A DNA stretch of 64,000 nt from Flavobacteriales bacterium (GTDB taxonomy: Bacteria > Bacteroidota > Bacteroidia > UBA10329), in contig JAIPBJ010000008.1 in assembly GCA_021739625.1 (NCBI GenBank), positions 734 through 64,733 on the forward strand, read 5' to 3'. Made by a program: the position numbers and the translations under genes. The notes beneath the pieces were generated by a model. It saw nothing but the letters and a program-made list of their open reading frames with translations. It was not told the DNA's origin and made no database searches. Every line of letters starts with the position of its first letter. The first letter of the stretch is position 1. Below are positions 8,703 through 43,218 of this stretch, in pieces.

Positions 8703-9542
8703 TTGAACAAAGGGCAGATCCTTCTCATTGTAGGTGCTGTGGTCGTGACCGCAGGACTTTACATGCTGCCCTATGCTCCGCTTGCACCTGAGGTTTCAGA
8801 GGAGGAGGCTGCCACACCGGTGGCCGAATACTCGGTCGTGGACGATGTGACGGAGGTCAATAACGGTTTGGACAGCGCATCGCTGGCAGTCATCACCCGC
8901 TTTGAGATAGCTGTTGACCGACACGGGAAGACCGAGTATCGCGACAGCCTCATGGCGGTCTATGATATGCTTCGCCAACCTTTGGCATCGGCCTATCATT
9001 CCATGAAAAAGGCCGAAGCTGTCAACACTGCCGATGCATGGACCGAAGCTGGCGAGCGATTCCTTCTCAATGCCAAGTACATGGGCGACCAACGGCAGAA
9101 GGCCGGATGGTTCGGTCTCTCCAAACTGTGTTTGGAAAAGGCGCTCGCCTTGGCCCCCAATGATTTGGACATCAAAGTGGATCTAGGGGTATGCATGGTC
9201 GAGAGCGCGGGCCTGACGGGCGATGCGCCCATGCAGGGCATCGGTCTTCTGAAGGAAGTGGAGCAGGCCGACCCGAACAACGTGAAGGCCTTGATCAACC
9301 TGGGCTATTTCTCTGTTCGCTCGGGTCAGTTCGACAAGGCCGAAGAGCGGTTCATCCGCGCACTGAAGGCCGATCCCGATTACAGCGAGGCATACCTCTA
9401 TCTCGCTGACCTTTACGAGAAGCAGCAGCAGACGGCCAAGGCCATTGACGCACTCAATACCTACATGAACAGGGTGGACGACCCTCAGCGCAAAGCAGAG
9501 GTGGCCGGCTACATCAAAGAACTTTCAAACAAACTCAAGTAA
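8703..9542 (+). CDS. TPR-repeat protein with an N-terminal membrane anchor
   Basis: The start is a TTG and the N-terminus has a hydrophobic segment. The C-terminal half carries TPR-like repeats (NVKALINLGYFSVRSGQFDKAEERFIRALKADPDYSEAYLYLADLY). Confidence 0.7.
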   Translation: MNKGQILLIVGAVVVTAGLYMLPYAPLAPEVSEEEAATPVAEYSVVDDVTEVNNGLDSASLAVITRFEIAVDRHGKTEYRDSLMAVYDMLRQPLASAYHSMKKAEAVNTADAWTEAGERFLLNAKYMGDQRQKAGWFGLSKLCLEKALALAPNDLDIKVDLGVCMVESAGLTGDAPMQGIGLLKEVEQADPNNVKALINLGYFSVRSGQFDKAEERFIRALKADPDYSEAYLYLADLYEKQQQTAKAIDALNTYMNRVDDPQRKAEVAGYIKELSNKLK

Positions 9543-12063: not shown

Positions 12064-12154
12064 GGGCTGCAATCGTTGGTAGGATACGTATTGCCGATCT
12101 GTCGGTGCACAGAGTGCCCGTAGGAAGTGGAACTTTCGGTTCGTTGTGTGACAT

Positions 12155-12191
12155 GAGTAACCTGAGTGGCATCTGCTCTGCACGACCTTTG
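12155..12191 (+). promoter_or_regulatory. Promoter-like motif GAGTAAC-N24-CCTTTG upstream of the MBL-rhodanese gene
   Basis: GTAAC is at 12157-12161 and CCTTTG at 12186-12191, with the ATG 24 nt downstream. This is one of four copies of the motif in the window. Confidence 0.45.
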
Positions 12192-12214: not shown

Positions 12215-13642
12215 ATGAACATAGAACAGATATACACGGGATGCCTGGCCCAAGGGGCCTATTACATCACCAGCAACGGTGAGGCCGCCATCATTGACCC
12301 GCTTCGGGAGGTGCAGCCTTACCTCGACCGTCTGGAGCGTGACGGAGTGAAACTGAAGTACATCTTCGAGACGCACTTCCATGCCGATTTCGTCTCTGGT
12401 CACCTGGACCTCAGCCGGGCCACAGGCGCGCCCATCGTTTTCGGTCCCACGGCCCAGCCGGGTTTCGAAAGCATCGTGGCCAAGGATGGACAGATCTTTC
12501 AACTGGGCGAAGAGCGTGTAAAAGTGCTGCACACGCCTGGGCACACCATGGAAAGCGCCACATTCCTGCTCATCGGCAAGGACGGCAGTGACCACGCGAT
12601 CTTCAGTGGAGACACACTCTTCATTGGCGATGTGGGCCGGCCCGACCTCGCACAGAAGGCCGCCAACATGACTCAGGAGCAGCTGGCAGCAACCCTGTTC
12701 CATTCTCTCCGCGACAAGATCATGACCCTTGCCGATGATGTCATCGTCTATCCCGCCCACGGTGCAGGCAGCGCATGTGGAAAGAACATGAGCAAGGAGA
12801 CCGTGAGCACTGTTGGAGAACAGAAGCGCAGCAACTATGCCCTGCGTGCAGATATGACCGAGGCCGAGTTTGTGAAGGAGGTGACCGATGGGCTGCTCCC
12901 GCCTCCCGGCTATTTCGGAATGAACGTGGCCATGAACAAACAGGGTTACGACAGCTTTGCCCAAGTGCTGAGCAATGGTATGAAAGCCCTCTCGGCCGAT
13001 GATTTCGAGACTGTGGCCGAGGCTTCGGGGGCGCTGATCCTGGACACCCGTGCCGCTGGTGATTTTGCCAAGGGATTCATCCCACAATCTGTGAACATTG
13101 GGCTCAAAGGCGATTTTGCCCCGTGGGTAGGAGCGCTCATCGTAGATGTGAGACAGCCGCTGCTTCTGGTCTGCGACCCTGGAACAGAGGAAGAGGCCAT
13201 CACCCGCCTGAGCCGCGTGGGTTTCGACCACGTACTTGGCCACATTGCAGGCGGTTTCGCGTCATGGCCGGCCGCAGGAAAGGAAGTGGACACCGTGAAC
13301 CGCATCACTGCCGAAGAATTCGCACAGCGATTCAAGCCCAGCGAAAGCAAGGTCATTGATATACGAAAAGAGAGCGAGTATGCTGCCGAGCATGTAAAGG
13401 ATGCCTACAGCTGGCCTTTGGCCTATATCAACAGTTGGATGAAGGACATCGACCCTGAGGAGCATTTCTTCCTGCACTGCGCAGGTGGATACCGTAGCAT
13501 GGCCGCAGCCAGCATTCTGCAAGCGCGAGGCTTCAGGAATTTCACTGAGGTGGAGGGAGGCTTCAGCGTCATTGCCAAGCAGAGCGAGGTGCCGTGCACC
13601 GACTTTGTATGTCAGACCAAGGCTTTCAGCGCAGGCAAATGA
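12215..13642 (+). CDS. MBL-fold metallo-hydrolase (persulfide dioxygenase-like) fused to two rhodanese domains
   Basis: The protein has the HFHADFVSG metal motif, TPGHT, and a C-terminal rhodanese domain with an active-site loop (HCAGGYRS). Confidence 0.85.
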   Translation: MNIEQIYTGCLAQGAYYITSNGEAAIIDPLREVQPYLDRLERDGVKLKYIFETHFHADFVSGHLDLSRATGAPIVFGPTAQPGFESIVAKDGQIFQLGEERVKVLHTPGHTMESATFLLIGKDGSDHAIFSGDTLFIGDVGRPDLAQKAANMTQEQLAATLFHSLRDKIMTLADDVIVYPAHGAGSACGKNMSKETVSTVGEQKRSNYALRADMTEAEFVKEVTDGLLPPPGYFGMNVAMNKQGYDSFAQVLSNGMKALSADDFETVAEASGALILDTRAAGDFAKGFIPQSVNIGLKGDFAPWVGALIVDVRQPLLLVCDPGTEEEAITRLSRVGFDHVLGHIAGGFASWPAAGKEVDTVNRITAEEFAQRFKPSESKVIDIRKESEYAAEHVKDAYSWPLAYINSWMKDIDPEEHFFLHCAGGYRSMAAASILQARGFRNFTEVEGGFSVIAKQSEVPCTDFVCQTKAFSAGK

Positions 13643-14869: not shown

Positions 14870-15718
14870 ATGCACATCCCCACGTTACGCATTCTTTTTA
14901 TGGCTTTCGGTCTCGGCATGATTGCCGCCTGCACCCCTGCCGACCAATCCAACGTGCCTGCAACGGGCGATGATTCCACGACACAGGAAGACCTCGACCT
15001 CACTGCGGCCGACAACATGATCAGGCAGATGCCATCGCCCATCGAAATGGCCATTCTTGTGAAACACTCCGGGGGCGAATACAACGCCTCGCTGCTCAAT
15101 CCCATCCAGAACATCGACCGCTATGCCACCACAGGCAAGAAGACCTTGAACATGGGCGTTTACAGTGCCGATGTCGGCTACACCAGCCTCTATAAGCAGA
15201 CGCAGGAGACGGTGTTTTATCTGAACAACATCCGCAAACTGTCAGATGCCATCGGTCTTTCGGATGCTTTCGACAAATCGGTCTTTGAGCGCGTGGAGGC
15301 CAACATAGAGCACCGCGATTCGCTGTTGCACATCCTCAGCGGTGCCTACGACATCAGCAATGATTACCTGAAGAACAACGACCGCATGAACACTTCGCTG
15401 CTTATGCTGGGCGGAGGATGGATAGAGACCATGTATCTGGCCTCCAATCTGGGCGAGGCGGGCGGAAGGCCCGGACCGGAGATCGCAAGCCGCGTGGCCC
15501 AGCAGGATGTGGTGCTCCGCAAGATCATCGCCACCATGCGCATGATCCCTGAAGATTCGCTGGTGGCCGAATTCGCCACAAAATTGGATGCACTGTCAAA
15601 GGTGCTTGTGGCGAAAGAACTGGTTCTGGGCACCGAAGAGGCCCCCAAGGTGGACAACGCCAAGATGGAGAAGGTGTATGTGCTCATTGACGAGATCCGT
15701 GCCTGGGTGGTGGCCTGA
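14870..15718 (+). CDS. Hypothetical lipoprotein
   Basis: MHIPTLRILFMAFGLGMIAAC is a signal peptide with a lipobox. The rest is helical, and I do not recognise a family. Confidence 0.7.
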   Translation: MHIPTLRILFMAFGLGMIAACTPADQSNVPATGDDSTTQEDLDLTAADNMIRQMPSPIEMAILVKHSGGEYNASLLNPIQNIDRYATTGKKTLNMGVYSADVGYTSLYKQTQETVFYLNNIRKLSDAIGLSDAFDKSVFERVEANIEHRDSLLHILSGAYDISNDYLKNNDRMNTSLLMLGGGWIETMYLASNLGEAGGRPGPEIASRVAQQDVVLRKIIATMRMIPEDSLVAEFATKLDALSKVLVAKELVLGTEEAPKVDNAKMEKVYVLIDEIRAWVVA

Positions 15719-21074: not shown

Positions 21075-21265
21075 GGTTCCCGGTTTTTAGGGTTGTTACC
21101 GATCGGTCATCAAACCCCCGTCCAAGCCGAACAATTCACAATAAATCGGCAACTATGGCATCTGCAACGATTTCAGAATGCCTAATTGGCACTTGTCGCG
21201 GACGGGAGCAGACAGAATATCAGTTCCGACACCATTTTTCCGGTCTGCCGCCTTGCCCAATGCGC

Positions 21266-21703
21266 TTACATCCGATCCACGAACCATTTCAGGGTGCGCT
21301 CGGTCTTCTTGAGATGAAGCGCAGCAGTGATGTTGTTTCTCAACCGCACGAATGCTGTCTCGCTCTTCACCACATAGTCATAGGCCTTGTGGTGCATACA
21401 ATTGATGGCCACATCTATACTGTCCTGCCCCGATAGCATGATGACCGGGATGGTGTCATCGTACGTCTTTATCTGGTCCAGAGTGTCAATGCCATGCATG
21501 GCATCGCGGTCAATGCCGTTGAGCAGATAGTCGAGAATGATGATGTCAGGATTCTTGTCCAGATGCGCTATGCACAGCTCGCCAGTAGCGAAGGTGCTGA
21601 TGATGAATTCGCCCGCTTCGCTGAACTCTATCTCCAGGGATTTGAGAAAAACGGCATCGTCATCCACCAGGAACAGGTGTATCCTTTGGTCTTTTGCGGT
21701 CAT
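21266..21703 (-). CDS. Single-domain response regulator (REC) with a short C-terminal extension
   Basis: The sequence reads MTAKDQRIHLFLVDDD...PDIIILDYLL. The start forms an ATGA overlap with the stop of the upstream kinase. Confidence 0.8.
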   Translation of the reverse strand: MTAKDQRIHLFLVDDDAVFLKSLEIEFSEAGEFIISTFATGELCIAHLDKNPDIIILDYLLNGIDRDAMHGIDTLDQIKTYDDTIPVIMLSGQDSIDVAINCMHHKAYDYVVKSETAFVRLRNNITAALHLKKTERTLKWFVDRM

Positions 21704-23694
21704 GAGGTTTTCATTCGTATGAGTTCTTCGTTCAATTCGTTGCATGCCTGGGTGCAAACATCAGCCAATTGTTGCACAAGTCCTTGCATGTCCTCAGACT
21801 TCTCCTGAGTGCCGGCATAGTCCTGCACCTTGCGGGCCATGTTCTCAAAGCTTTCGTGGATGCCCATGATGGCGAATGAAGGAATCATCTTGTGCAACGA
21901 GGCCCGCAGCAGTGTCCAGTCCTGTTCCAACAGGCCCTGCTGCATGGCGATGACCAGCGCGGGCGTCTGCTCCAGATAGGCATCTATCATCTCCATCATA
22001 AGCACCGGGTTGGCCTTGGTGCGGATGGTGAGGTAGGACAGGTCTATCCGCCTGATGATGCCTCCCACCACCGTGGCCGCCACCTGATCGGTGATGTTGA
22101 TGACGCGCGGCCGGCTCGTGAGGCTCACTATCTTGCTGTAGAGCAAACGCTCGTCCACAGGCTTGGCGATATAGTCGTTCATGCCCACTGCCTTGCATTT
22201 GGCCACGTCCACAGTGGTCACATCGGCCGTGAGGGCAATGATCGGAATGTCCGAGCACATCTTGTTGCGGATATATTCCGTGGCCTCAAATCCGTTCATC
22301 TTGGGCATCTGCAGATCCATCAGTATGATGTCATAATGCTTGGTCTTCAATTTCTCGATGGCTATCATGCCATTGGCGGCTATGTCGCGCTCAAATCCGA
22401 AATCGTCAAGCAACGTCTTCATCAGCAGTTGGTTCAGGGCGATGTCTTCCACCACCAGCACACTGATGCCCTTTATGGCCGTGTCCATTTCCATCAGTTC
22501 AAGGTCCACTTCGGCCTTGGCACTGGTCTTTTGAAAATCGAGTGTGAAACTGAAGATCGATCCCTTGCGCAGCACACTCTCCACACTGATGGTGCCTTTC
22601 TGCGACTCCACCAGTTGTTTCACAATGGCGAGGCCCAGTCCGGTGCCTCCGAAAATGCGCGCAGTGCTGCTCGATGCCTGTTGGAAATTCTCGAAGATGG
22701 CGGCCATCCTGTCTGCCCGGATGCCGATGCCCGTGTCCCTTACCGCAAATTGGATGGTCACGCTCCTGTCGTCCTGCTTCAAAAGGCGCACGCTGATGTC
22801 TATGCCGCCTTCGTTGGTGAATTTCACGGCATTGCTCATCAGGTTGAGTATGATCTGATGCAGGCGCACAGGGTCGCCCACCAGCACCTCAGGTATGGCA
22901 TCATCATAGTGCTTTTCCAATGTCAGGTTCTTCTCCTGGATCTTGGTCTCGAACAGGTGGAGCATGGCCGAGATGGAGGCCGACAATTTGAACGGGGTCT
23001 GCTCGAAGGTCATCTTGCCCGCATCCACCTTGGCCAGGTCCAGAATATCGTTTATCAGCACTATGAGCGCATCGCCACTCATCTTGATGGCCGTGAGATA
23101 TTCCTTCTGCTTGGCCGTCAGCTCGGTCTTGAGCACCACCTTGGTGAATCCGATGATGGCATTCATCGGGGTCCTTATCTCATGGCTCATGTTCGATAGG
23201 AACTGCTGCTTGGCCTTCACTGCATCGTGGGCGATGAGCGTGGCACTTTCGGCCTTCGACTGCGCGGTCTCGGCAATGGAAGTGGCGAGTTCAGCGAACA
23301 CACGGGCCTCTGTGAGCTCCTTCTCGATCCGTTTCTGCTCGGTGATGTCCCGTGCCACCACCACCGCACCGAGCACCTCTCCCTGTTCGTTCTTGAAAAC
23401 GGATCCGTTGAAGAGCACATCGGTCAGTTTTCCGTCCATGATCGTCAATGGATAATCGGCCACAAAGCCCCTTGCAAAAACCTGCTCATAGCCTTCGCGG
23501 GCCTTGTCTGTGTCGGTGAAATAGCTACTGAAATCGGTGCCTATCATCTGCTCTCGCAGCAGGCCCGTTACCAGCACAGAGGCATTGTTCATGTCCATGA
23601 TCTTGCCGGCCGTGCTGATAGTGAAAAGCGGGTCGAGGCTGGCCTCGATCAGGCTTCTTGCATACCGCGACTCTTGCAATGTGTGATGTGTCAT
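21700..23694 (-). CDS. Cytoplasmic hybrid sensor histidine kinase (PAS-HisKA-HATPase-REC-HPt)
   Basis: The protein has an H-box SHEIRTPMNAIIG, ATPase boxes NAVKFT, DTGIGI and GGTGLGL, a REC domain (VLVVEDIALNQ...LMDLQMPKMNG), and a C-terminal HPt-like helix bundle. I set the start at the ATG at 23694, which forms an ATGA overlap with the AraC gene stop. Confidence 0.85.
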   Translation of the reverse strand: MTHHTLQESRYARSLIEASLDPLFTISTAGKIMDMNNASVLVTGLLREQMIGTDFSSYFTDTDKAREGYEQVFARGFVADYPLTIMDGKLTDVLFNGSVFKNEQGEVLGAVVVARDITEQKRIEKELTEARVFAELATSIAETAQSKAESATLIAHDAVKAKQQFLSNMSHEIRTPMNAIIGFTKVVLKTELTAKQKEYLTAIKMSGDALIVLINDILDLAKVDAGKMTFEQTPFKLSASISAMLHLFETKIQEKNLTLEKHYDDAIPEVLVGDPVRLHQIILNLMSNAVKFTNEGGIDISVRLLKQDDRSVTIQFAVRDTGIGIRADRMAAIFENFQQASSSTARIFGGTGLGLAIVKQLVESQKGTISVESVLRKGSIFSFTLDFQKTSAKAEVDLELMEMDTAIKGISVLVVEDIALNQLLMKTLLDDFGFERDIAANGMIAIEKLKTKHYDIILMDLQMPKMNGFEATEYIRNKMCSDIPIIALTADVTTVDVAKCKAVGMNDYIAKPVDERLLYSKIVSLTSRPRVINITDQVAATVVGGIIRRIDLSYLTIRTKANPVLMMEMIDAYLEQTPALVIAMQQGLLEQDWTLLRASLHKMIPSFAIMGIHESFENMARKVQDYAGTQEKSEDMQGLVQQLADVCTQACNELNEELIRMKTS

Positions 23695-24248
23695 TCGGGT
23701 TGTTCTATTGCTGTGTGTCTGCTGGCCTCGTTCTTCAGTGCTCTGATCTGCTTGAAGTGCGATGGCGAATGCCCGGTCACCTTCTTGAACTGGTTGCTCA
23801 GGTGTGCCACGCTGCTGTAGCGCATCTTGAAGGCGATCTCGGTCATGTTCCACTGCCCGTCCATGATCAGTTCCTTCACCCGCTCTGCCTTCTGCGCAAT
23901 GAAGAACTGCTCGATGGTGGATCCCTGCATCTCGGTGAAAAGTTCAGACAGCGAGTGATAGTCGCGTTCCAGCTGTTCGGCCAGATAGGAGCTGAACGTA
24001 CACCGTTGCAGGTCCTCATCGGAATAGACCATGGACATGATCGAATCTTTGATCCTTCCCATGAGCAGGCCCCTCTTGTCGTCCATCATCACCAGACCTG
24101 AGCACAGCAGTCCTGCCCTGAGGCTCTCCCACTCCAATGCAGTGAGGTCTTCCATGATGTCAACCTCGCCCAGGTCCACGACCTTGTAGTGCAGGCCAAG
24201 CTTGTTCAGCTCAACGCGCACTGCTGTTTTGCAGCGTTCACTCATCAT
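23691..24248 (-). CDS. AraC-family transcriptional regulator with a small N-terminal alpha/beta domain (paralog 1)
   Basis: The C-terminal HTH reads ...MTEIAFKMRYSSVAHLSNQFKKVTGHSPSHF. It is clearly paralogous to 26528-27088. A conserved KLYIKY strand lies upstream of the first ATG, behind a CTG codon. Confidence 0.8.
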   Translation of the reverse strand: MMSERCKTAVRVELNKLGLHYKVVDLGEVDIMEDLTALEWESLRAGLLCSGLVMMDDKRGLLMGRIKDSIMSMVYSDEDLQRCTFSSYLAEQLERDYHSLSELFTEMQGSTIEQFFIAQKAERVKELIMDGQWNMTEIAFKMRYSSVAHLSNQFKKVTGHSPSHFKQIRALKNEASRHTAIEQPE

Positions 24249-24294: not shown

Positions 24295-24329
24295 CAAAGG
24301 TGACCCGGTCCTTTCGGGCAGCGTTACAC
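24295..24329 (-). promoter_or_regulatory. Promoter-like motif GTGTAAC-N22-CCTTTG upstream of the AraC/kinase/receiver operon
   Basis: The plus strand has caaagg at 24295-24300 and gttacac at 24323-24329. The first ATG is 47 nt downstream. Confidence 0.45.
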
Positions 24330-24428
24330 TATTCCCGAAAGTAATTGCATCATTCCCTCATGGGCCATCAGTTGCCGTTCATCGTGGTTCCTGTCGGCTC
24401 ATGCCCGGACGGGTCCGCAGCATTCGAT

Positions 24429-26121: not shown

Positions 26122-26274
26122 TCAGATTCTCCTGCCTTGAATGATGCGAAGTATGACCGCCACAAGTGCGATTACCAGAAGGATATGGATCAGCCCACCG
26201 GCATGAAATCCAAGAAAGCCAACAGCCCATCCTATGATGAGTATGACCGCCACGATATAGAGTAGATTTCCCAT
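26122..26274 (-). CDS. lmo0937-family small membrane protein
   Basis: MGNLLYIVAVILIIGWAVGFLGFHAGGLIHILLVIALVAVILRIIQGRRI matches the conserved ~50-aa family pattern. Confidence 0.7.
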   Translation of the reverse strand: MGNLLYIVAVILIIGWAVGFLGFHAGGLIHILLVIALVAVILRIIQGRRI

Positions 26275-26405
26275 GATGCTGTTCTGTTCGGTTAATGTCC
26301 AGTTCTGACGATACAAAGGACTGATTCATGCTTTCGAATTGCTTTATAGAATTATTCCGAAGACTTACATGATTCCCATATTGGATATTCTCTACGGTGC
26401 GATGG

Positions 26406-26413
26406 TATCTTTG
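26406..26413 (+). promoter_or_regulatory. Bacteroidota -7 box TAtcTTTG, 115 nt upstream of AraC paralog 2
   Basis: There is an exact TAnnTTTG match. It implies a long 5' leader. Confidence 0.4.
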
Positions 26414-26527: not shown

Positions 26528-27088
26528 ATGAAATTGTACATCAAGTACATGGTCTCCATCCGCTGCAAGATGGTAGTGAAGTCCGAGTTGGACAGACTCG
26601 GTCTGCGCTATGGCGAGGTCCGGCTGGGTGAGGTCGAGGTCTTTGGCGATCTGACACCCGAGCAGAGGTTGCAGCTCCTGACGGCCTTGGCAGCATCGGG
26701 CCTTCAGCTCATGGACGACCACAAGGCCATCTTGGTCGAAAGGGTGAAGCAGGTGGTCATTGAGATGGTCCACTATTCAGAGGAGAGGCCCAAATGCAAT
26801 TTCTCAGACCACCTCAGCAAGCAGCTCAACTACGATTATACCTACCTGTCAAGCCTCTTCTCTGAGGTCAAAGGCATCACCATCGAGCGTTACATCATTG
26901 CCCACAAGATTGAGCGCGTCAAGGAACTGATCCTATATGACGAGCTCAATATCACCGAGATCGCCCAGAAGATGAATTACAGCAGCGTGGCACATCTGAG
27001 CAACCAGTTCAAGAAGGTGACAGGGCTCACACCTTCCTTTTTCAAGAAGATGAAGATCAGAAGAACGGGATCGTTGGATGATATGTGA
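26528..27088 (+). CDS. AraC-family transcriptional regulator (paralog 2)
   Basis: The sequence reads MKLYIKYMVSIRCKMVVKSELDRLGL...ITEIAQKMNYSSVAHLSNQFKKVTGLTPSFF. The start is the internal ATG of the track ORF. Confidence 0.8.
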   Translation: MKLYIKYMVSIRCKMVVKSELDRLGLRYGEVRLGEVEVFGDLTPEQRLQLLTALAASGLQLMDDHKAILVERVKQVVIEMVHYSEERPKCNFSDHLSKQLNYDYTYLSSLFSEVKGITIERYIIAHKIERVKELILYDELNITEIAQKMNYSSVAHLSNQFKKVTGLTPSFFKKMKIRRTGSLDDM

Positions 27089-27179
27089 ATAATGCAAATT
27101 ATCGGATTGATAATGTAATGTCGGCCGTTGGATCTGCCCCTTGCTTTGCAGATCAGATCAAACTCACAACGGCACGGTC

Positions 27180-32354: not shown

Positions 32355-32526
32355 AGGCGCAGGCCAATGTGCCGATATGCCGCACCGGATCTCCGATCGA
32401 CATCATGTGACCATCAACGGGAATTATGTAACAGTGAATGTGCGATTGCACACCACCTTTGAGCGCAATCATCAGTTCACCGATCATTCGGCCAAACGGC
32501 CACAAGGATCTCACAGAAAACGCACC

Positions 32527-32892
32527 ATGAAAGAGCAAGGACAGAAGAACATCAACGAATTGACCGAGATTGAGAAGGCCTCGGCCGTCATCACCGTGGA
32601 ACTGGTCGAGTATCTGCCCAACGCGGTGGTCATCAAGACCATCCTCCGCAAATCGACAGGCAACATCACCGTCATGTCCGTTGACAGCGGTGAGGGCCTC
32701 ACCGAGAAGACCACACCTTTCGACACCTACGTGCAGGTGATAGACGGCCAGGCCGATGTCATCATATCAGGAGTGAGCAATCTGCTCAAGATGGGGCAGA
32801 GCATCGTCATCCCGGCCCATGCGCCCAATCTGGTCAAACCCAACGGAAGGTTCAAGATGGTGCTCACGGTCATCAAGAGCGGCTACGAATGA
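32527..32892 (+). CDS. Cupin-domain protein
   Basis: The 121-aa protein is beta-rich (FDTYVQVIDGQADVIISG...GQSIVIPAHAPN). The start is the internal ATG of the track ORF. Confidence 0.6.
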   Translation: MKEQGQKNINELTEIEKASAVITVELVEYLPNAVVIKTILRKSTGNITVMSVDSGEGLTEKTTPFDTYVQVIDGQADVIISGVSNLLKMGQSIVIPAHAPNLVKPNGRFKMVLTVIKSGYE

Positions 32893-35419: not shown

Positions 35420-35709
35420 GATGTCATTTGGTTAGATGGTTGAACAACAGCGGCAATCTTAAAATTATCTCCCGACATGGAAAATGACGGAAGTCAGTGC
35501 GCCACAGCCTGTGGCCATGCAGCTTGATCCCCCGCCCGCGTCCCACAATCCCCCGGCCGTGCTGCCCCGGCCCTCAACAATGCGCGAACCATGCAAAAAT
35601 CTGCAACAATTATGTAAGCCCTGAAACCTATCAATTACCGATCTTTACACGTCCAGAACGGGCCATCGGGCAATGCCGGCCGATGACCGCACCGTAGGGT
35701 CTGTGTACA

Positions 35710-36747
35710 ATGGTGGAAGTGAACAAACTTGGAGTGGTGTTGAAGAAGACCCAATTGGGTTTCGAAAGTGAAGGCGTGCTCAATCCCGGGGTCATACTCG
35801 TGGAAGGCAGCATCCACATGTTCTACCGCGCAGTGGCCAAAGGCAACTATTCGAGCATCGGATACTGCCGCCTTTCCGACCCTGTCACCGTGGCCGAGCG
35901 CCACGACACCCCCATTTTCTTCCCCCAGGACCCGCATGAGGTGCATGGGGTCGAGGATGCGCGCGTGGTCTGCATCGATGGCATCTATTACATGACCTAC
36001 ACCGCCTATGACGGGGTCAATGCCCTCTGCGCAGTGGCCGTGTCAAACGACCTGAAGACATGGGAGCGCAAAGGCTTCATAACGCCCCAGGTCAACTACA
36101 AGGAGTTTGCCCGATTGGCCGCCACCAAGGGCGACATCAATGACAAGTATCTGCGGTTCAACAGCCCGCAGGGGGTCAACATCAATCGGGGCGATCAGGT
36201 GCTGATCTGGGACAAGGACGGCATCTTCTTTCCGCGCAGAATAGGGGGCAAGCTGTGTTTCATGCATCGCATTCGCCCCGACCTGCAGATCGTGTGCGTG
36301 GACAGACTGGAGGATCTGACCCCCGATTTCTGGCAGAAGTATCTCATGAATATCAACGACCACATACTGCTCGCCCCCAGGCACAAGCACGAGGTGAGCT
36401 ATGTGGGCGGTGGCTGCCCCCCCATCGAAACGGCCGAGGGATGGCTCTTCATCTATCACGGGGTATGCGACACCGTGGAAGGCTATGTCTATTCGGCATG
36501 CGCAGCCCTTTTCGACCTTGAAAACCCGCAAGTGGAGATAGCACGATTGCCCTACCCACTGTTCCGGCCCGAGTTTGAATGGGAGATGAAAGGATATGTC
36601 AACAACGTTTGTTTCCCCACCGGGGCCGTGCTGTTGGACGACACCCTCTACATCTACTACGGTGCGGCCGATGACCTCATCGCCTGCGCTTCGGTGAGCC
36701 TTTCAGCACTGCTGAAAGAGTTGTTGAACTATAGACCGATCACATGA
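35710..36747 (+). CDS. GH130-family glycoside phosphorylase/hydrolase-like protein (DUF377 type)
   Basis: The sequence GVLNPGVILVEGSIHMFYRAV...VEDARVVCIDGIYYMTYTAYDG...CFPTGAVLLDDTLYIYYGAAD is typical of the GH130 five-bladed propeller. Confidence 0.7.
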   Translation: MVEVNKLGVVLKKTQLGFESEGVLNPGVILVEGSIHMFYRAVAKGNYSSIGYCRLSDPVTVAERHDTPIFFPQDPHEVHGVEDARVVCIDGIYYMTYTAYDGVNALCAVAVSNDLKTWERKGFITPQVNYKEFARLAATKGDINDKYLRFNSPQGVNINRGDQVLIWDKDGIFFPRRIGGKLCFMHRIRPDLQIVCVDRLEDLTPDFWQKYLMNINDHILLAPRHKHEVSYVGGGCPPIETAEGWLFIYHGVCDTVEGYVYSACAALFDLENPQVEIARLPYPLFRPEFEWEMKGYVNNVCFPTGAVLLDDTLYIYYGAADDLIACASVSLSALLKELLNYRPIT

Positions 36748-36782
36748 CCACGCGACCATAGACCAATAAAGACCAGGAACAC

Positions 36783-39209
36783 ATGCTACTTCTACCTATT
36801 GCCAGCTCCATCGCACCTGCCCAGATCAACGGGGGTGCATATCTCAACGCCCGCACCGCCCTCAATGGCCATGACCCGGCAACACCACAGCATCAGTTGC
36901 CGCAGGTGCTGGTCATCACCTCCTATCCGCCCCGCGAGTGTGGCATCGCCACCTATTCCGAAGACCTGATCAAGGCATTGCAGCACAAGTTCGGCATCAC
37001 TTTCTCCATCAGCATCTGCGCTTTGGAGGAAGGCAAGGAGAAGTACGCCTACAAGGACCGCCCGGCATACACGCTCGACACCGAATGCAGCAACGCTTTC
37101 GTCAAGCTTGCATTTCAGATCAACCGGAATCCGGACGTGAAACTGGTGCTCCTGCAGCACGAGTTCGGCTTTTTCCGAAATCAGGTGGAGGCATTCGAAC
37201 GGTTCCTCGAAGCGTTGGACAAACCCGTGGTCACCGTGTTCCACACCGTACTGTCCGATCCCGACCCCAAGCGTCTGGCCAATGTGCGCCACATCGCGGA
37301 GCATTCCAGCTCGCTCATTGTGATGACAACGACCTCGATGCAAACGTTGGAGCGCGATTATGCGGTGCCGGCACAGAAGATCAACGTTATCCCCCATGGC
37401 ACGCATCTCATCAATCATCAGAGCAAGGACACGCTCAAGGAGAAACATGGTCTTCAAGGCAGGAAAGTGCTGAGCACCTTCGGACTCCTCAGTTCGGGCA
37501 AGGGCATAGCCACCACCCTCGATGCCTTGCCGGCCATCGTCCAAGAACATCCCGAGACCCTATTCCTCATCATCGGAAAAACACATCCCGGAGTGGTGAA
37601 ACAGGAGGGCGAACGCTACCGCGAGTCTTTGCAGCAAAAGGTGGAGCACCTCGGACTGCAGCAGAACGTCCGGTTCGTCAACCGCTATCTGCCACTGCCC
37701 GAACTGCTGGAGTACCTCCAGTTGACCGACATCTACCTGTTCACCTCCACCGACCCCCTGCAGGCCGTGAGCGGAACCTTTTCCTATGCCCTCAGCTGTG
37801 GATGCCCGGTCATATCCACGCCCTTCCCGCACGCCCGCGAAGTGCTCTGCGAGGGAACAGGTGTCCTTGTCGATTTTGCGAATGCCCCCCAACTGGCCGC
37901 TGCCGTCATCGACCTGCTGCAGAACGACCAGAGGCGCACCAACATCGGTTCCAACGCACTCCATCGCATGGCCTCTGCCGTCTGGGAGAATTCGGCCATC
38001 GCCCACGCCTCGCTTTTCTCTGACCTCACAGACAAGGGCATCAGCCTCAGATACGCCCTTCCCGACATTTCGCTCGACCACCTGCGCAGGATGACCACCT
38101 CAAGGGGCATGATCCAGTTCTCCAAACTCGACCGCCCCGACATTGGCTCAGGCTATACCGTGGACGACAACGCACGCGCAATGGTGGCCGTCTGCCAGCA
38201 CTTCGAACTCACCGGGGACAAGGACGATATTCCGCTCATCAGGGTCTATCTGAACTTCATCGTCTATTGCCAGCAGGAGGACGGCAATTTCCTCAACTAT
38301 GTGGACGAGAATGGGGAATTCACCCCGCAGAACGATGCCACCAATCTGGAAGATGCCAACGGCAGGGCCATCTGGGCACTCGGCCATCTCTGTTCGATGC
38401 GGGCCAAGGTTCCGCAGTCCATTCACGTGCTGGCCGACAACACCATTCAACTGGCCCTCGACAAAGTGAGCGGCATCCATTCGACCCGCGCCATGGGCTT
38501 TATCATCAAGGGGCTGTATTACCGCGACCTCGCCATCAGCTCCGATTCGAATCTGGCCCTTATTGCCCGACTGGCCGACCGTCTGGTGCAGATGTACCGC
38601 CACGAGGCCGATGACGACTGGCATTGGTTCGAGGATTATTTCACCTACGCCAACGGCATCCTGCCCGAGGCATTGCTCTGCGCCTTTGAGATGACCGGTA
38701 AGGAGCAGTACGGTGAGATTGCCAAGGCCTCCTTCGACTTTCTCCTTTCCAAGGTGTTCAGCCCTGAAGGCATCAGAGTGGTATCGAACAAGGGCTGGAT
38801 GCACCGCTCAGATGCATCGGGCGTCAGGCCCATAGGTGGCGAACAGCCCATTGACGTGGCCTACACCATCCTTGCCCTCGACAGGTTTCACAGGGTCTTC
38901 CGCGAACCGGGACACAGGAAACAGATGCACGCGGCCTTCGAATGGTTCCTTGGACGCAATCACCTTCACAGGATCATTTACAATCCCTGCACAGGAGGTT
39001 GCTATGACGGGCTCGAAGAATACAATGTCAACCTCAACCAAGGGGCCGAATCGACCGTGAGCTACCTCATGGCACGCTTGGTGATGGAGAACCGACAGCC
39101 TGCCCACAGGTTCGAGTCACAGACCTATCAGTCCCGCAGGAGATCTGCACGCCCCCGCAGTGTCGGACCGGTGGAGAGCGCCCGCCCACGCAAGTATGAC
39201 CATGCGTAG
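36783..39209 (+). CDS. GT4-type glycosyltransferase fused to a ~400-aa C-terminal alpha-helical (alpha/alpha-barrel-like) domain
   Basis: The N-terminal half reads VLVITSYPPRECGIATYSEDL...FLIIGKTHP...YLFTSTDPLQAVSGTFSYALSCGCPVISTPFPHARE, which is the GT-B fold. The C-terminal half is rich in aromatic and helical repeats. Confidence 0.7.
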   Translation: MLLLPIASSIAPAQINGGAYLNARTALNGHDPATPQHQLPQVLVITSYPPRECGIATYSEDLIKALQHKFGITFSISICALEEGKEKYAYKDRPAYTLDTECSNAFVKLAFQINRNPDVKLVLLQHEFGFFRNQVEAFERFLEALDKPVVTVFHTVLSDPDPKRLANVRHIAEHSSSLIVMTTTSMQTLERDYAVPAQKINVIPHGTHLINHQSKDTLKEKHGLQGRKVLSTFGLLSSGKGIATTLDALPAIVQEHPETLFLIIGKTHPGVVKQEGERYRESLQQKVEHLGLQQNVRFVNRYLPLPELLEYLQLTDIYLFTSTDPLQAVSGTFSYALSCGCPVISTPFPHAREVLCEGTGVLVDFANAPQLAAAVIDLLQNDQRRTNIGSNALHRMASAVWENSAIAHASLFSDLTDKGISLRYALPDISLDHLRRMTTSRGMIQFSKLDRPDIGSGYTVDDNARAMVAVCQHFELTGDKDDIPLIRVYLNFIVYCQQEDGNFLNYVDENGEFTPQNDATNLEDANGRAIWALGHLCSMRAKVPQSIHVLADNTIQLALDKVSGIHSTRAMGFIIKGLYYRDLAISSDSNLALIARLADRLVQMYRHEADDDWHWFEDYFTYANGILPEALLCAFEMTGKEQYGEIAKASFDFLLSKVFSPEGIRVVSNKGWMHRSDASGVRPIGGEQPIDVAYTILALDRFHRVFREPGHRKQMHAAFEWFLGRNHLHRIIYNPCTGGCYDGLEEYNVNLNQGAESTVSYLMARLVMENRQPAHRFESQTYQSRRRSARPRSVGPVESARPRKYDHA

Positions 39210-39270
39210 GCGGCCCGGTCCTTTGACAGTGCCGTACCGCCTGCGCATTGTGCAACTCTTGCCCACAATT

Positions 39271-39306
39271 GTGTAACGCCCGCCTGTTGCTGTGCCGAGA
39301 CCTTTG
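39271..39306 (+). promoter_or_regulatory. Promoter-like motif GTGTAAC-N23-CCTTTG upstream of the ytxH-like operon
   Basis: GTGTAAC is at 39271-39277 and CCTTTG at 39301-39306, with the ATG 41 nt downstream. Confidence 0.5.
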
Positions 39307-39346
39307 TCCCGGTGATCATTCCGATCACCATTAAAACAGCAGCATC

Positions 39347-39634
39347 ATGAGTTCAGGCAAAGTATTATTGGGAGTGTTGGCAGGCGTTGCGGCCGGGGCC
39401 ACTTTGGGCATCCTTTTCGCACCCGACAAGGGTTCGCGCACCCGTCAGAAGATTGCCGACAAGAGCAATCAGTATGCTGACGATCTGGGCGACCGTTTCA
39501 CCGATTTCATGGACGACATCAACCGGAAGTTCGATGCCCTGAGCAGCGATGCGAAGCACATGGCCCAGAACACCAGGCACAAATTGGAGGACGCGGCCAA
39601 GGACATGTCGGCCTCTGTCAACAGCAGCCGTTAA
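39347..39634 (+). CDS. YtxH-domain protein
   Basis: The sequence is MSSGKVLLGVLAGVAAGATLGILFAPDKGSRTRQKI, followed by a charged helical tail. Confidence 0.85.
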   Translation: MSSGKVLLGVLAGVAAGATLGILFAPDKGSRTRQKIADKSNQYADDLGDRFTDFMDDINRKFDALSSDAKHMAQNTRHKLEDAAKDMSASVNSSR

Positions 39635-39637
39635 GCC

Positions 39638-39991
39638 GTGAGCAGCCCAACGGACAACCCGGCCATGGCCATTGAGGCCCTGTTCGAGAAGGTGGAGGCC
39701 TTTGGCAGGACGACCTACGAACTGTCGAAGCTCAAAACGTTGGAGACCACCACCGTGGTGGTCACCACGCTCATCGCAAAGATGAGCGTGGTGCTCGTGC
39801 TCAGCCTGTTCGTACTGGTGTTCAATATCGGTGTGGCTCTCTTGCTGGGCGAGGTGCTCGGCAAACTGTACTACGGTTTCTTCATCGTGGCAGGTTTCTA
39901 TCTCCTCCTCGGGACCGTGCTGCATTTCCTGCTCCATCGCTGGCTCAAGAGGCCCATCAGTGAACTCATCATCATGCAGGCCCTCAAATGA
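39638..39991 (+). CDS. Holin-X-like (phage holin family 3_6) two-TM membrane protein
   Basis: The start is a GTG. The protein has two long TM helices and is the usual partner of YtxH genes in Bacteroidota. Confidence 0.65.
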   Translation: MSSPTDNPAMAIEALFEKVEAFGRTTYELSKLKTLETTTVVVTTLIAKMSVVLVLSLFVLVFNIGVALLLGEVLGKLYYGFFIVAGFYLLLGTVLHFLLHRWLKRPISELIIMQALK

Positions 39992-40434
39992 AGACAGCAT
40001 CCGTGAATATCCGTTCAATAGAGCAGCTGCGCGAAGCGGTCGTGGCGCTGGAGGCAAGACAGGAGACCGAAGGCGCGGTGCTGCGCGAGCATTTCATGCT
40101 CACCTACGAGAGCATACGCCCGGTGAACCTCATCAAGAGTGCGTTCAACGAAGTGACAGGGTCTGAAGAACTGAAGGAACATCTGGTGAGTTCCAGTGTG
40201 GGGCTGGTGGCCGGCCACCTGACCAGAAAAGCATATAACGCGGTCAACGGCAACGAGGGCGGAAGCATCGCAGGAACTGCCATTCAGTTCGGGGTCACCA
40301 ACCTGGTGGCCCAACACCCCGATATGGTGATGGCCGCTGGCAGAGGGCTCTTCCGTATGATATACCGTGCATGGAATGAACGCGAGCGGACCCCGGATCA
40401 CCGTCAGGATGAGGTGAAGGGCTTTAGGCCGTAG
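39988..40434 (+). CDS. Hypothetical protein, third gene of the ytxH-like operon
   Basis: The start forms an ATGA overlap with the preceding stop. The 148-aa protein has a central Gly/hydrophobic segment. Confidence 0.6.
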   Translation: MKTASVNIRSIEQLREAVVALEARQETEGAVLREHFMLTYESIRPVNLIKSAFNEVTGSEELKEHLVSSSVGLVAGHLTRKAYNAVNGNEGGSIAGTAIQFGVTNLVAQHPDMVMAAGRGLFRMIYRAWNERERTPDHRQDEVKGFRP

Positions 40435-40464: not shown

Positions 40465-40472
40465 TACATTTG
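40465..40472 (+). promoter_or_regulatory. Bacteroidota -7 box TAcaTTTG
   Basis: There is an exact TAnnTTTG match 32 nt upstream of the ATG at 40504. Confidence 0.5.
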
Positions 40473-42200: not shown

Positions 42201-42316
42201 TGGACCAAGGTCATAGGATCATGGTGAAAGGGTGATGTGTCTCAGCATGTCACGTTGACCGCGATAGGCGATCAGCAATCTTCAATCAGTGAATGATGCA
42301 ATCCCTTTCCCACATC

Positions 42317-42352
42317 GTGTAACATGGCCGGTTCTGCATGGGGACACCTTTG
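42317..42352 (+). promoter_or_regulatory. Promoter-like motif GTGTAAC-N23-CCTTTG upstream of csbD
   Basis: GTGTAAC is at 42317-42323 and CCTTTG at 42347-42352, with the ATG 40 nt downstream. Confidence 0.5.
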
Positions 42353-42391
42353 TTCCGTGAGAATCATCTCACACTAAAACATTCAGAACAC

Positions 42392-42577
42392 ATGAACACC
42401 AAGACGATTGAAGGCACCTGGAACGAACAGAAGGGCAGGTTGAAAAAAGCATTCGCAGAGCTGACGGACAATGACCTCATGTATAAGGAGGGCCAGAAGG
42501 ATGCAATGCTGGGCAAGATCCAAGTGAAGCTCGGAAAGACCAAGGACGAATTCGATAAGATAATGGCATCACTCTGA
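42392..42577 (+). CDS. csbD: CsbD-family general stress protein
   Basis: The sequence is MNTKTIEGTWNEQKGRLKKAFAELTDNDLMYKEGQKDAMLGKIQ. Confidence 0.85.
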   Translation: MNTKTIEGTWNEQKGRLKKAFAELTDNDLMYKEGQKDAMLGKIQVKLGKTKDEFDKIMASL

Positions 42578-42671
42578 TGCCGCATGCCATGATGCCGCTT
42601 TCGTCAGGCCCTGACAGGCAGGGCGGGGCGACACTGGTCACTGAACAATCAACCCAGACAAACAGAACAAC

Positions 42672-43124
42672 ATGAAAAAGTCGATACAGATACTCGGAAT
42701 GGCCGCACTGATGCTTACCCCTATGCTCATAAGCTGCGAGACCGCTGCCCAGAAGGAGGAAAAGGTGAAGGCCGCACAACTTGAACTTGACCAGTTGACC
42801 AAGGACGCTGCCGACAAGGCAGCCAAGGAGAAGCAGGCCGAAGAATGGGCGGTGTTCAAACAAGAGACCAACGCCAAGATTCAGGCCAACGCAGATCGCA
42901 TAGCCGAGCTGCGCGTCAAGAAATCCACATCTGGCAAAGTGATGAGTGCCGTCTATGCCGCCAAGATCGATGCCCTGCAGACCCGCAACAGCGAACTTCA
43001 GGCCCGGCTTGAGGCCTATGAGAAGGAGAACAGCGACTGGGAGGTGTTCAAGGCTGATGTCAAGCGCGAACTTGACGAGATCGGTCAGGCCTTCGAAGAC
43101 CTCGGAGACGACAAGAAGAAGTGA
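42672..43124 (+). CDS. Coiled-coil lipoprotein
   Basis: The signal and lipobox are MKKSIQILGMAALMLTPMLISC. The rest is charged and helical. Confidence 0.65.
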   Translation: MKKSIQILGMAALMLTPMLISCETAAQKEEKVKAAQLELDQLTKDAADKAAKEKQAEEWAVFKQETNAKIQANADRIAELRVKKSTSGKVMSAVYAAKIDALQTRNSELQARLEAYEKENSDWEVFKADVKRELDEIGQAFEDLGDDKKK

Positions 43125-43218
43125 GCATTTTGGTTAGTGCTTGCAGGAGAGAGCGGCAGAATCCGTTCTCTCTTTTTTTCATGCCCGACCATATCAATTC
43201 ATATACAGACACAACATC

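Follow-up and report, generated by a model that had tools for sequence, protein, structure and literature searches.

Four intergenic copies of a bipartite, promoter-like motif, GTGTAAC and CCTTTG (GAGTAAC in one copy) separated by 22 to 24 nt, were noted in a preliminary description of a 64,000-nucleotide stretch of a Flavobacteriales genome (assembly GCA_021739625.1, contig JAIPBJ010000008.1, positions 734 to 64,733), hereafter called the window. The copies precede a ytxH-like gene, csbD, an operon encoding an AraC-type protein (AraC-A) with a hybrid histidine kinase and a receiver, and a gene for an MBL-rhodanese fusion. Such an arrangement raises the question of what kind of promoter the motif belongs to and which protein reads it. 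The repeated motif is real, and it is the core of a promoter type shared by several Bacteroidota lineages. The candidate reader is AraC-B, a small AraC-family protein also encoded in the window.

Occurrence of the motif in the window

A pattern search for GTAAC-N22-24-CCTTTG gives five exact matches in the window, at 12157 (+), 24295 (−), 32428 (+), 39273 (+) and 42319 (+). Shuffled windows contain 0.06 matches on average, and none of 100 dinucleotide-preserving shuffles reached five. The coordinates and sequences first given for the four sites match the window sequence. Their description as intergenic and facing the downstream gene also agrees with our gene map and with independent gene calls made on an identical contig. 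It had been stated that no further full matches exist; the exact fifth copy at 32428–32461 (+) corrects this.

The motif is part of a three-part element

When the sites are aligned on GTAAC, the motif proves to be the 3′ two-thirds of a larger element with three parts. The distal half-site has the consensus tGAATgATGyAAy, with exactly 21 bp from its TGCAA down to the TGTAA in GTGTAAC. The sequence 5′ of GTAAC (gGAATtGT) repeats the 5′ part of this distal block. The proximal half-site, with the consensus gGAATtGTGTAAC, thus lies 21 bp downstream of the distal one and forms a direct repeat with it. The 13-bp consensus shared by both is nGAATnnTGyAAy, and the two starts are 21 bp, or two helical turns, apart. 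About 21 nt separate the end of the promoter-proximal copy, GGAATTGTGTAAC, from the third part downstream, a −7-type box SACCTTTG, which reads (C/G)-A-C-C-T-T-T-G.

Across the window and eleven related loci (designated by L and a number), a relaxed scan produced 42 distinct candidate sites, among them a few apparent chance hits such as L178 12447 and 11044 and L001 19865 and 1610. In 39 of the 42 the two half-sites start 21 bp apart. Between the proximal half-site and the 8-nt box lie 21 nt in 32 sites, 20 nt in eight and 22 nt in two. The distal half-site serves as an independent test, because it was absent from the search pattern. Six window sites were tested for it, namely the five exact matches and the copy at 27115. 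Five of these six carry a half-site at exactly −21 bp that scores 7–10 of 10, with a background P of 1e-4 to 2e-2 per site. The copy at 27115–27148 had been set aside as a weaker fifth copy; it is a real member, with a strong distal half-site and a position kept in relatives, and not a mere weak copy.

The box of sigma-A promoters has been reported at −12 to −5 (PMC9723704). From this published position the transcription start site (TSS) is placed 5 nt after the G of TTTG. The proximal half-site, which ends 20–22 nt before the 8-nt box, is then predicted at about −46 to −34, and the distal half-site at about −67 to −55. With a TSS so placed, the proximal copy would stand where the Bacteroidota −33 element is expected. 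No TTTG element near −33 occurs at the motif sites, and ...TGTAAC takes that position. The core of the box at the candidate sites is nAnCTTTG, with T at box position 1 in 5 of 42. The canonical TAnnTTTG replaces SACCTTTG in L174 (TAAATTTG at 15396, −), in L177 (TACCTTTG at 9230, +) and in L181 (TACATTTG). The promoter-like nature first proposed for the motif, with a Bacteroidota −33/−7 geometry, is supported.

The canonical box itself occurs 16 times in the window. Fourteen of the copies fall within the intergenic 10% of the sequence and face genes 4–70 nt away, with two at much larger distances. The copies provide an internal map of the ordinary promoters. A scan for sigma-70-type promoters was uninformative, as is the case for Bacteroidota.

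Conservation of the element in related genomes

No close relative of the source lineage, which has 56% GC, was found in the genome and metagenome collections searched. The closest homologues found are at most 76% identical for ClpB and at most 48% for the AI-2E transporter, and an identical-protein look-up of CsbD returned nothing beyond the window's own copies. Distant Bacteroidota loci were collected via AI-2E (L001–L080) and ClpB (L083–L162), 2.4 Mb in total, and in these the strict motif shows chance-level hits only. The loci are simply unlinked to the regulon. A relaxed three-part scan of the same loci found a few real-looking sites, in Ferruginibacter only.

Syntenic contigs were reached through YtxH homologues. 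These are L163 (GCA_964488095.1), L166 and L167, and the nearest syntenic records are the metagenome-assembled genomes (MAGs) GCA_964488095.1 and GCA_030153465.1. On these contigs the motif lies upstream of the ytxH and csbD orthologues. The search of relatives suggested in the preliminary description thus finds the element conserved. Alignment of the ytxH promoters (five) and of the csbD promoters (four) shows invariance in both half-sites, in ACCTTTG and in a leader hairpin, whereas the spacers have diverged.

The three-part architecture is also present in MAGs and isolates of 30–42% GC, including Bacteroidales and Cytophagales. One relaxed three-part scan gives 9 sites per 100 kb in the window, 18 in loci linked to AraC-B and 0–0.3 in the distant loci. 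A Bacteroidales MAG of 30% GC (L171–L173) encodes AraC-B, CsbD, the lmo0937-family protein, YtxH with its two companions, AI-2E, GH130 and the glycosyltransferase. L169 has the gene order ClpB, lmo0937-family, AraC-B, DUF748, MlaEFD, which is the order of the window at 18–32 kb. The order of the three-gene ytxH operon is shared by L163, L166, L167, L171 and L176.

AraC-B and AraC-A

AraC-B (26528–27088, +) is a protein of 186 residues with an HMA-like N-terminal domain and an AraC-type DNA-binding domain holding two helix-turn-helix (HTH) motifs. A canonical box, TATCTTTG at 26406–26413, precedes the gene. Its paralogue AraC-A, 52% identical, is the first product of an operon on the other strand (21266–24248, −), which consists of AraC-A (23691–24248), the hybrid histidine kinase (21700–23694) and the receiver (21266–21703). 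The coding regions of this operon overlap by 4 nt, and the kinase contains PAS, HisKA, HATPase and REC domains (Pfam). Both AraC-B and AraC-A match Pfam HTH_18 and HTH_AraC.

Genes of the AraC-B type adjoin motif-driven genes in all nine distinct loci compared (the window, L163, L166, L169, L171, L174, L176, L177 and L178). Further neighbourhoods were supplied by seven AraC-B homologues; these share the window's gene set and also carry the three-part motif. In the window the distal half-site of the promoter after AraC-B starts with the TGA stop codon of that gene (27086–27088). The same overlap is found in L169, L171, L177, L178 and Chondrinema litorale, across 30–57% GC, with coordinates such as 10559–10561 in L178 and 9559–9561 in L181. 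In L169, L171, L177 and L178 GTAAC follows exactly 27 nt after the AraC-B stop, the position used in the window too. Chondrinema litorale is a cultured organism, and its copy with the same arrangement of AraC-B and site is on a plasmid.

The best 120 of 8000 AraC-B homologues are 65–78% identical (about 70%) and nearly all of 186 residues; those among them that are named are Bacteroidota MAGs. The second HTH is nearly invariant among the homologues, which fits a conserved binding site. In the AlphaFold (AF2) model, with a mean pLDDT (predicted local distance difference test score) of 86.5, a beta-alpha-beta-beta-alpha-beta N-terminal domain is joined by a linker helix to a seven-helix AraC DNA-binding domain. 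Among the Foldseek matches of the latter are AraT, YesN, AraC, MarA and SoxS. The N-terminal domain gives weaker matches to metallochaperones of the Atx1, HAH1 and GolB type (E 0.07–0.2, target template-modelling score 0.6–0.7) and is predicted to be an HMA/ferredoxin-like domain of residues 1–62. Arg12-Cys13 is invariant and lies in the loop that holds CxxC in metallochaperones. As placed in the model, this pair may be a site for thiol, redox or metal sensing.

The lmo0937-family gene and AraC-B are divergent, and their control region spans 26314–26413. The half-sites of the lmo0937-family promoter (26343–26376, −) lie about 40–75 nt upstream of the predicted start site of AraC-B. This layout recalls araC/araBAD and, by analogy, suggests that AraC-B might be autoregulated.

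Proposed mechanism and alternative explanations

The preliminary description offered two kinds of regulator, an ECF-like (extracytoplasmic function) sigma factor or a dedicated activator. The activator is favoured because GTGTAAC belongs to a 13-bp half-site that recurs as a direct repeat at 21 bp, because an AraC-family gene is tied to the motif in nine loci, and because the −7 box is sometimes the canonical TAnnTTTG; the ECF-like sigma factor finds no support. On the features of the sites, then, the promoters are probably of class II, in the AraC/XylS style, and would be served by the ordinary sigma-A together with an activator of the AraC-B type. Two copies of the small AraC-family protein, with AraC-B as the candidate, would bind the repeats, and in this genome the paralogue AraC-A would perhaps participate too. 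The bound activator would recruit RNA polymerase carrying ordinary sigma-A to a deliberately imperfect −7 box, and the recruitment would turn on dispersed small stress and envelope genes. AraC-A would exert positive feedback, because it is itself driven by the motif. AraC at I1-I2 of araBAD and XylS at Pm have the same geometry as the predicted half-site positions here.

A number of points weigh against this mechanism. We infer the binding by AraC-B from gene adjacency and site geometry, and we likewise infer which sigma factor is used, where transcription starts, that the protein activates and does not repress, and that stress is the inducing signal. In L174 no site follows AraC-B. The thresholds of the half-site scoring were set after inspection of the data, and orthologous sites are non-independent observations. 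AraC-family proteins can also repress. C or G stands at box position 1 in 35 of the 42 sites, AT-rich genomes included, and position 4 is almost always C. Such a SACC bias exceeds what a weak sigma-A box would call for; it could point to a different sigma specificity, or it may tune the promoter to activator dependence. Finally, the nearly invariant GTAAC carries AAC and resembles the −35 elements of ECF sigma factors.

The last points lead to a different explanation, in which GTAAC is the −35 element and SACCTTTG the −10 element of an alternative sigma factor, ECF-like or other, with the distal repeat as an accessory. AAC is typical of ECF −35 elements, the box departs systematically from TAnnTTTG (S at position 1, C at 4), and the site before the MBL-rhodanese gene shares only GTAAC and the box. 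The general stress regulons of other phyla are also controlled by sigma factors. However, the distance of 20–22 nt from GTAAC to the box is the −33/−7 spacing of sigma-A and 5–6 nt too long for an ECF factor (16–17 nt). The alignments contain no conserved CGT-like block in the spacer, where an ECF −10 element would be expected 16–17 nt after AAC. A sigma factor leaves unexplained why the GTAAC block reproduces the 13-bp distal repeat in full, and canonical boxes substitute at some sites. The MBL-rhodanese site, moreover, is most likely a different element. An ECF sigma/anti-sigma pair had been envisaged for the regulon, but no sigma gene was found in the window by a Pfam scan of 30 of its proteins or by phmmer with ECF queries, nor is there an anti-sigma gene in it. 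Of ten related loci searched with phmmer, an ECF sigma gene turned up in L178 alone. E. coli RpoE, one of two query sequences, was typed by hand and nevertheless detected the L178 sigma. Control by an alternative sigma factor is therefore unlikely on these counts.

A second explanation keeps the activator operator and changes its protein. A LytTR-type regulator, or a response regulator that takes its signal from the hybrid kinase and receiver, could bind the repeats, the adjacency of AraC-B being coincidental or indirect. Direct repeats with a 21-bp period are typical of LytTR regulators as well, and a motif promoter drives AraC-A together with the hybrid kinase and receiver. The kinase/receiver operon, however, is missing from the low-GC loci that bear the motif, and AraC-B is the only regulator common to all of these. 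The overlap of stop codon and half-site ties AraC-B to the site in the window and in five related loci, and the listed neighbourhoods contain no LytTR gene. We regard a different binding protein as improbable.

The same protein might also act in the opposite sense. AraC-B would then bind the repeats mainly as a repressor or anti-activator and keep the −33 region of otherwise constitutive sigma-A promoters covered until it is released by stress. The proximal half-site does overlie the −33 region, a perfect TAnnTTTG at some sites should be active alone, and the repressing ability of the family mentioned above fits this as well. But most boxes are without the T of TAnnTTTG and no TTTG element is present at −33, which is the usual signature of activator dependence, and the geometry is that of class II activators. 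Repression as the main role consequently has little probability.

That the matches arose by chance, or as copies of repeated or mobile sequence, has nothing in its favour except the shortness of the original pattern and is refuted by the shuffle statistics (five observed against 0.06 expected), by spacers unrelated from site to site, and by the ytxH and csbD promoter alignments, the blocks being kept across orthologues and in loci of 30–57% GC, so that its probability is negligible.

The activator mechanism can be extended into a broader proposal, which we put forward tentatively and consider possible but doubtful as a whole. Bacteroidota of several orders would have a stress and envelope response without a dedicated sigma factor, in which a 186-residue one-component regulator, an HMA-like sensor domain joined to an AraC DNA-binding domain, acts on tandem 13-bp repeats at −67 to −34 of promoters of the SACCTTTG class. 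The invariant cysteine could make AraC-B a direct sensor of thiols, redox state or metals.

Comparison with known systems

The kind of mechanism is already known, being that of an AraC/XylS-style class II activator operator. AraC at araBAD (I1-I2) and XylS at Pm likewise use two direct-repeat half-sites with a 21-bp period. In the class II promoters of both, the proximal half-site abuts or overlaps the −35-equivalent, as is predicted here. The araC regulator adjoins or diverges from its target, and so does AraC-B with the lmo0937-family gene. AraC has the same two-HTH fold as that predicted for the AraC-B DNA-binding domain. On the other hand, the half-site sequence differs from those of AraC and XylS, and the promoter is of the Bacteroidota −7 (TTTG) type. 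AraC has a cupin sugar-binding domain, whereas AraC-B has an HMA/ferredoxin-like N-terminal domain of about 62 residues. Many dispersed promoters would be bound here, against one catabolic operon there.

In this last respect MarA, SoxS and Rob are closer, each being a small AraC-family protein with a dispersed stress regulon and class I/II site positions. However, MarA and SoxS act as monomers on a single asymmetric 20-bp box and control other genes, whereas the tandem repeats here imply two protomers.

SigB of Bacillus and Listeria and EcfG of Alphaproteobacteria control an overlapping set of genes, with CsbD, YtxH, lmo0937-family and small hydrophilic or membrane proteins. They rely on an alternative sigma factor and partner switching; the promoters here have no linked sigma gene and appear to combine an activator operator with a sigma-A-type box. 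The canonical Bacteroidota sigma-A promoter has the TTTG core of the −7 box and the upstream spacing in common with the element, but in the element C or G replaces T1 of the box in the 35 sites mentioned and GTAAC replaces the TTTG at −33.

PM2 of Bacteroides thetaiotaomicron is a non-canonical, near-palindromic motif whose elements lie at −10 and −30. It accompanies hundreds of TSSs, among them 29% of the internal and 35% of the antisense ones (PMC7366714). PM2 resembles the present motif in being non-canonical and tied to stress genes, in its case those of stationary phase and oxidative stress. The motif here is in contrast a rare direct repeat. Identity of the two was rejected as unlikely, judged by the description and frequency of PM2 only, because PM2 is near-palindromic and abounds at internal and antisense start sites.

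The literature searched contains no description of the three-part promoter signature, the regulator family, its HMA-like domain or its association with genes of the general-stress type, which recurs at all AraC-B loci examined. The preliminary description knew of no general stress regulon with a defined promoter in Bacteroidota, and we likewise found no published one in that literature, nor an established general stress regulator or stress promoter for the phylum. Bacteroidota are a major phylum of gut, soil and sea with an unusual transcription apparatus. The three-part element provides a precise cis-signature for predicting the regulon genome-wide, and AraC-B provides a named candidate regulator family. 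The element would show that an AraC-type activator can be grafted onto the −33/−7 promoter architecture. Its promoters are candidate stress-inducible parts for the engineering of Bacteroidota, and clear experiments are opened in tractable species.

Promoters of the element in the window

Five sites are firm members of the promoter type: 24295–24356 (−), 27086–27148 (+), 32399–32461 (+), 39244–39306 (+) and 42290–42352 (+). Three of the four transcription units originally grouped together are thus retained.

In the ytxH promoter the distal half-site CGCATTGTGCAAC (39244–39256, +) agrees with nGAATnnTGYAAY at 9 of 10 positions (P ~4e-4), and its columns A..TG.AA are invariant in five orthologous promoters. 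The proximal half-site ACAATTGTGTAAC (39265–39277, +) holds GTGTAAC at predicted positions −46 to −34, and its TGTAAC is invariant in the orthologues. The −7-like box GACCTTTG (39299–39306, +) has ACCTTTG invariant in five orthologues and predicts a TSS near 39311. The region of the proximal half-site at 39264–39273 is also a perfect 10-bp palindrome, CACAATTGTG, which L163 has too.

The ytxH transcript is predicted to open with a 5′ hairpin, GGTGATC-attcc-GATCACC (39311–39329, +; predicted −11.0 kcal/mol), whose pairing is maintained by other bases in L163, L166, L167 and L176. The operon (39347–40434, +) encodes YtxH (39347–39634; Pfam E = 1.3e-20), a membrane protein of 117 residues (39638–39991) and a protein of 148 residues (39988–40434).

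The csbD promoter (42290–42352, +) is built of the distal half-site TGAATGATGCAAT (42290–42302), the proximal half-site CACATCGTGTAAC (42311–42323) and the box CACCTTTG (42345–42352). It is conserved in L163, L167 and the 30%-GC locus L171. The predicted transcript (42357–43184, +) begins with a hairpin at 42357–42372 (predicted −7.6 kcal/mol). It continues through csbD (42392–42577), the product of which is confirmed by Pfam, and an sll1863-like gene (42672–43124), and ends at a terminator found by a terminator scan at 43145–43184. The match of the sll1863-like protein to NCBIfam NF052504 (E = 1.9e-7) has 31.2 bits, under the 35-bit cutoff.

The ytxH and csbD hairpins begin exactly at the predicted +1, and an A-rich stretch with ...TAAA... 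comes after each. They may stabilise the 5′ ends of the mRNAs. They belong to no known RNA family, as the whole window has no Rfam match.

The promoter of the AraC-A operon (24295–24356, −), with the distal half-site GGAATGATGCAAT (24344–24356), the proximal half-site GGAATAGTGTAAC (24323–24335) and the box CACCTTTG (24295–24302), is the top-scoring site of the window, both half-sites agreeing at 10 of 10 positions. The promoter after AraC-B (27086–27148, +), with TGAATAATGCAAA (27086–27098), TTGATAATGTAAT (27107–27119) and the box TTGCTTTG (27141–27148), leads to a small open reading frame (ORF) and then to DUF748/AsmA and MlaEFD genes. The fifth exact copy of the motif (32428–32461) ends 65 nt before a cupin-like ORF of 121 residues (32527–32892). 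It belongs to a promoter at 32399–32461 (+) with the distal half-site GACATCATGTGAC, the proximal half-site GGAATTATGTAAC and the box CACCTTTG.

Two further sites in the window are degenerate members, for which relatives have full or identical variant sites at orthologous positions. One, at 26314–26376 (−), consists of GGAATCATGTAAG, ATAATTCTATAAA and the box GTCCTTTG and precedes the lmo0937-family gene (26122–26274, −; NCBIfam NF033488). The identical variant is present in L169 at 9822 (−), and full sites are found in L163, L176 and L177. The other, at 35585–35647 (+), consists of CGAACCATGCAAA, ACAATTATGTAAG and the box GATCTTTA and precedes GH130 (35710–36747), which is followed by a glycosyltransferase (36783–39209). 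L163 has a full site at the orthologous position 2045.

The putative regulon thus comprises CsbD, YtxH with two small membrane proteins, the lmo0937-family membrane protein and the sll1863-like protein. It further comprises DUF748/AsmA and MlaEFD, the cupin, GH130 with the glycosyltransferase, and AraC-A with the kinase and receiver. General-stress markers had been pointed out downstream of the motif; CsbD and YtxH bear this out, and the lmo0937-family and sll1863-like proteins add to them. An AI-2E transporter and DUF2141 are also in the product list and may have their own promoter (TACATTTG at 40465). In other lineages the set is extended by Usp, by OmpA-like and ice-binding-like proteins and by DUF6600. 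The gene content fits a response of stress and envelope protection.

The GH130 phosphorylase-like gene and the glycosyltransferase of 808 residues (35710–39209) accompany the stress genes in L163 and L171 too. The two may share this control and make up a pathway for compatible solutes or envelope glycans.

The site before the MBL-rhodanese gene

The exact match at 12157, originally grouped with the other three, appears to belong to a different kind of promoter. It lacks a distal half-site (background P = 0.34), and the 5′ part of its proximal half-site is poor, with GAAT missing. The look-alike site (12147–12191, +) instead contains a CRP/FNR-like element, TGTGACATGAGTAACC (12147–12162), and the box GACCTTTG (12184–12191), and precedes the MBL-rhodanese fusion at 12215–13642 (Pfam). 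L179, a syntenic relative with 85% protein identity, keeps TGTGAC-N4-GTAAC in the orthologous promoter, and L180 (Flavobacterium palustre) has TGTAAC-N4-GTCAC; the boxes are GATGTTTG and TATCTTTG. Membership was rejected on the missing distal half-site and on the CRP/FNR-like element that the orthologous promoters conserve in its place. TGTGACATGAGTAACC is predicted at −49 to −34 with the dyad centre near −41.5, and its right half is a weak match to TGTGA-N6-TCACA; the comparison covered three sequences. To judge from these sequences, the site is most likely a different promoter that matches GTAAC-N22-24-CCTTTG by partial coincidence.

Sulf_transp genes lie downstream of the MBL-rhodanese gene in the window and in L179. 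The region suggests a sulfur-stress operon with its own regulator.

The upstream region of ClpB (21075–21265, −) contains neither the three-part motif nor a clear TAnnTTTG box. ClpB adjoins the stress island in both the window and L169.

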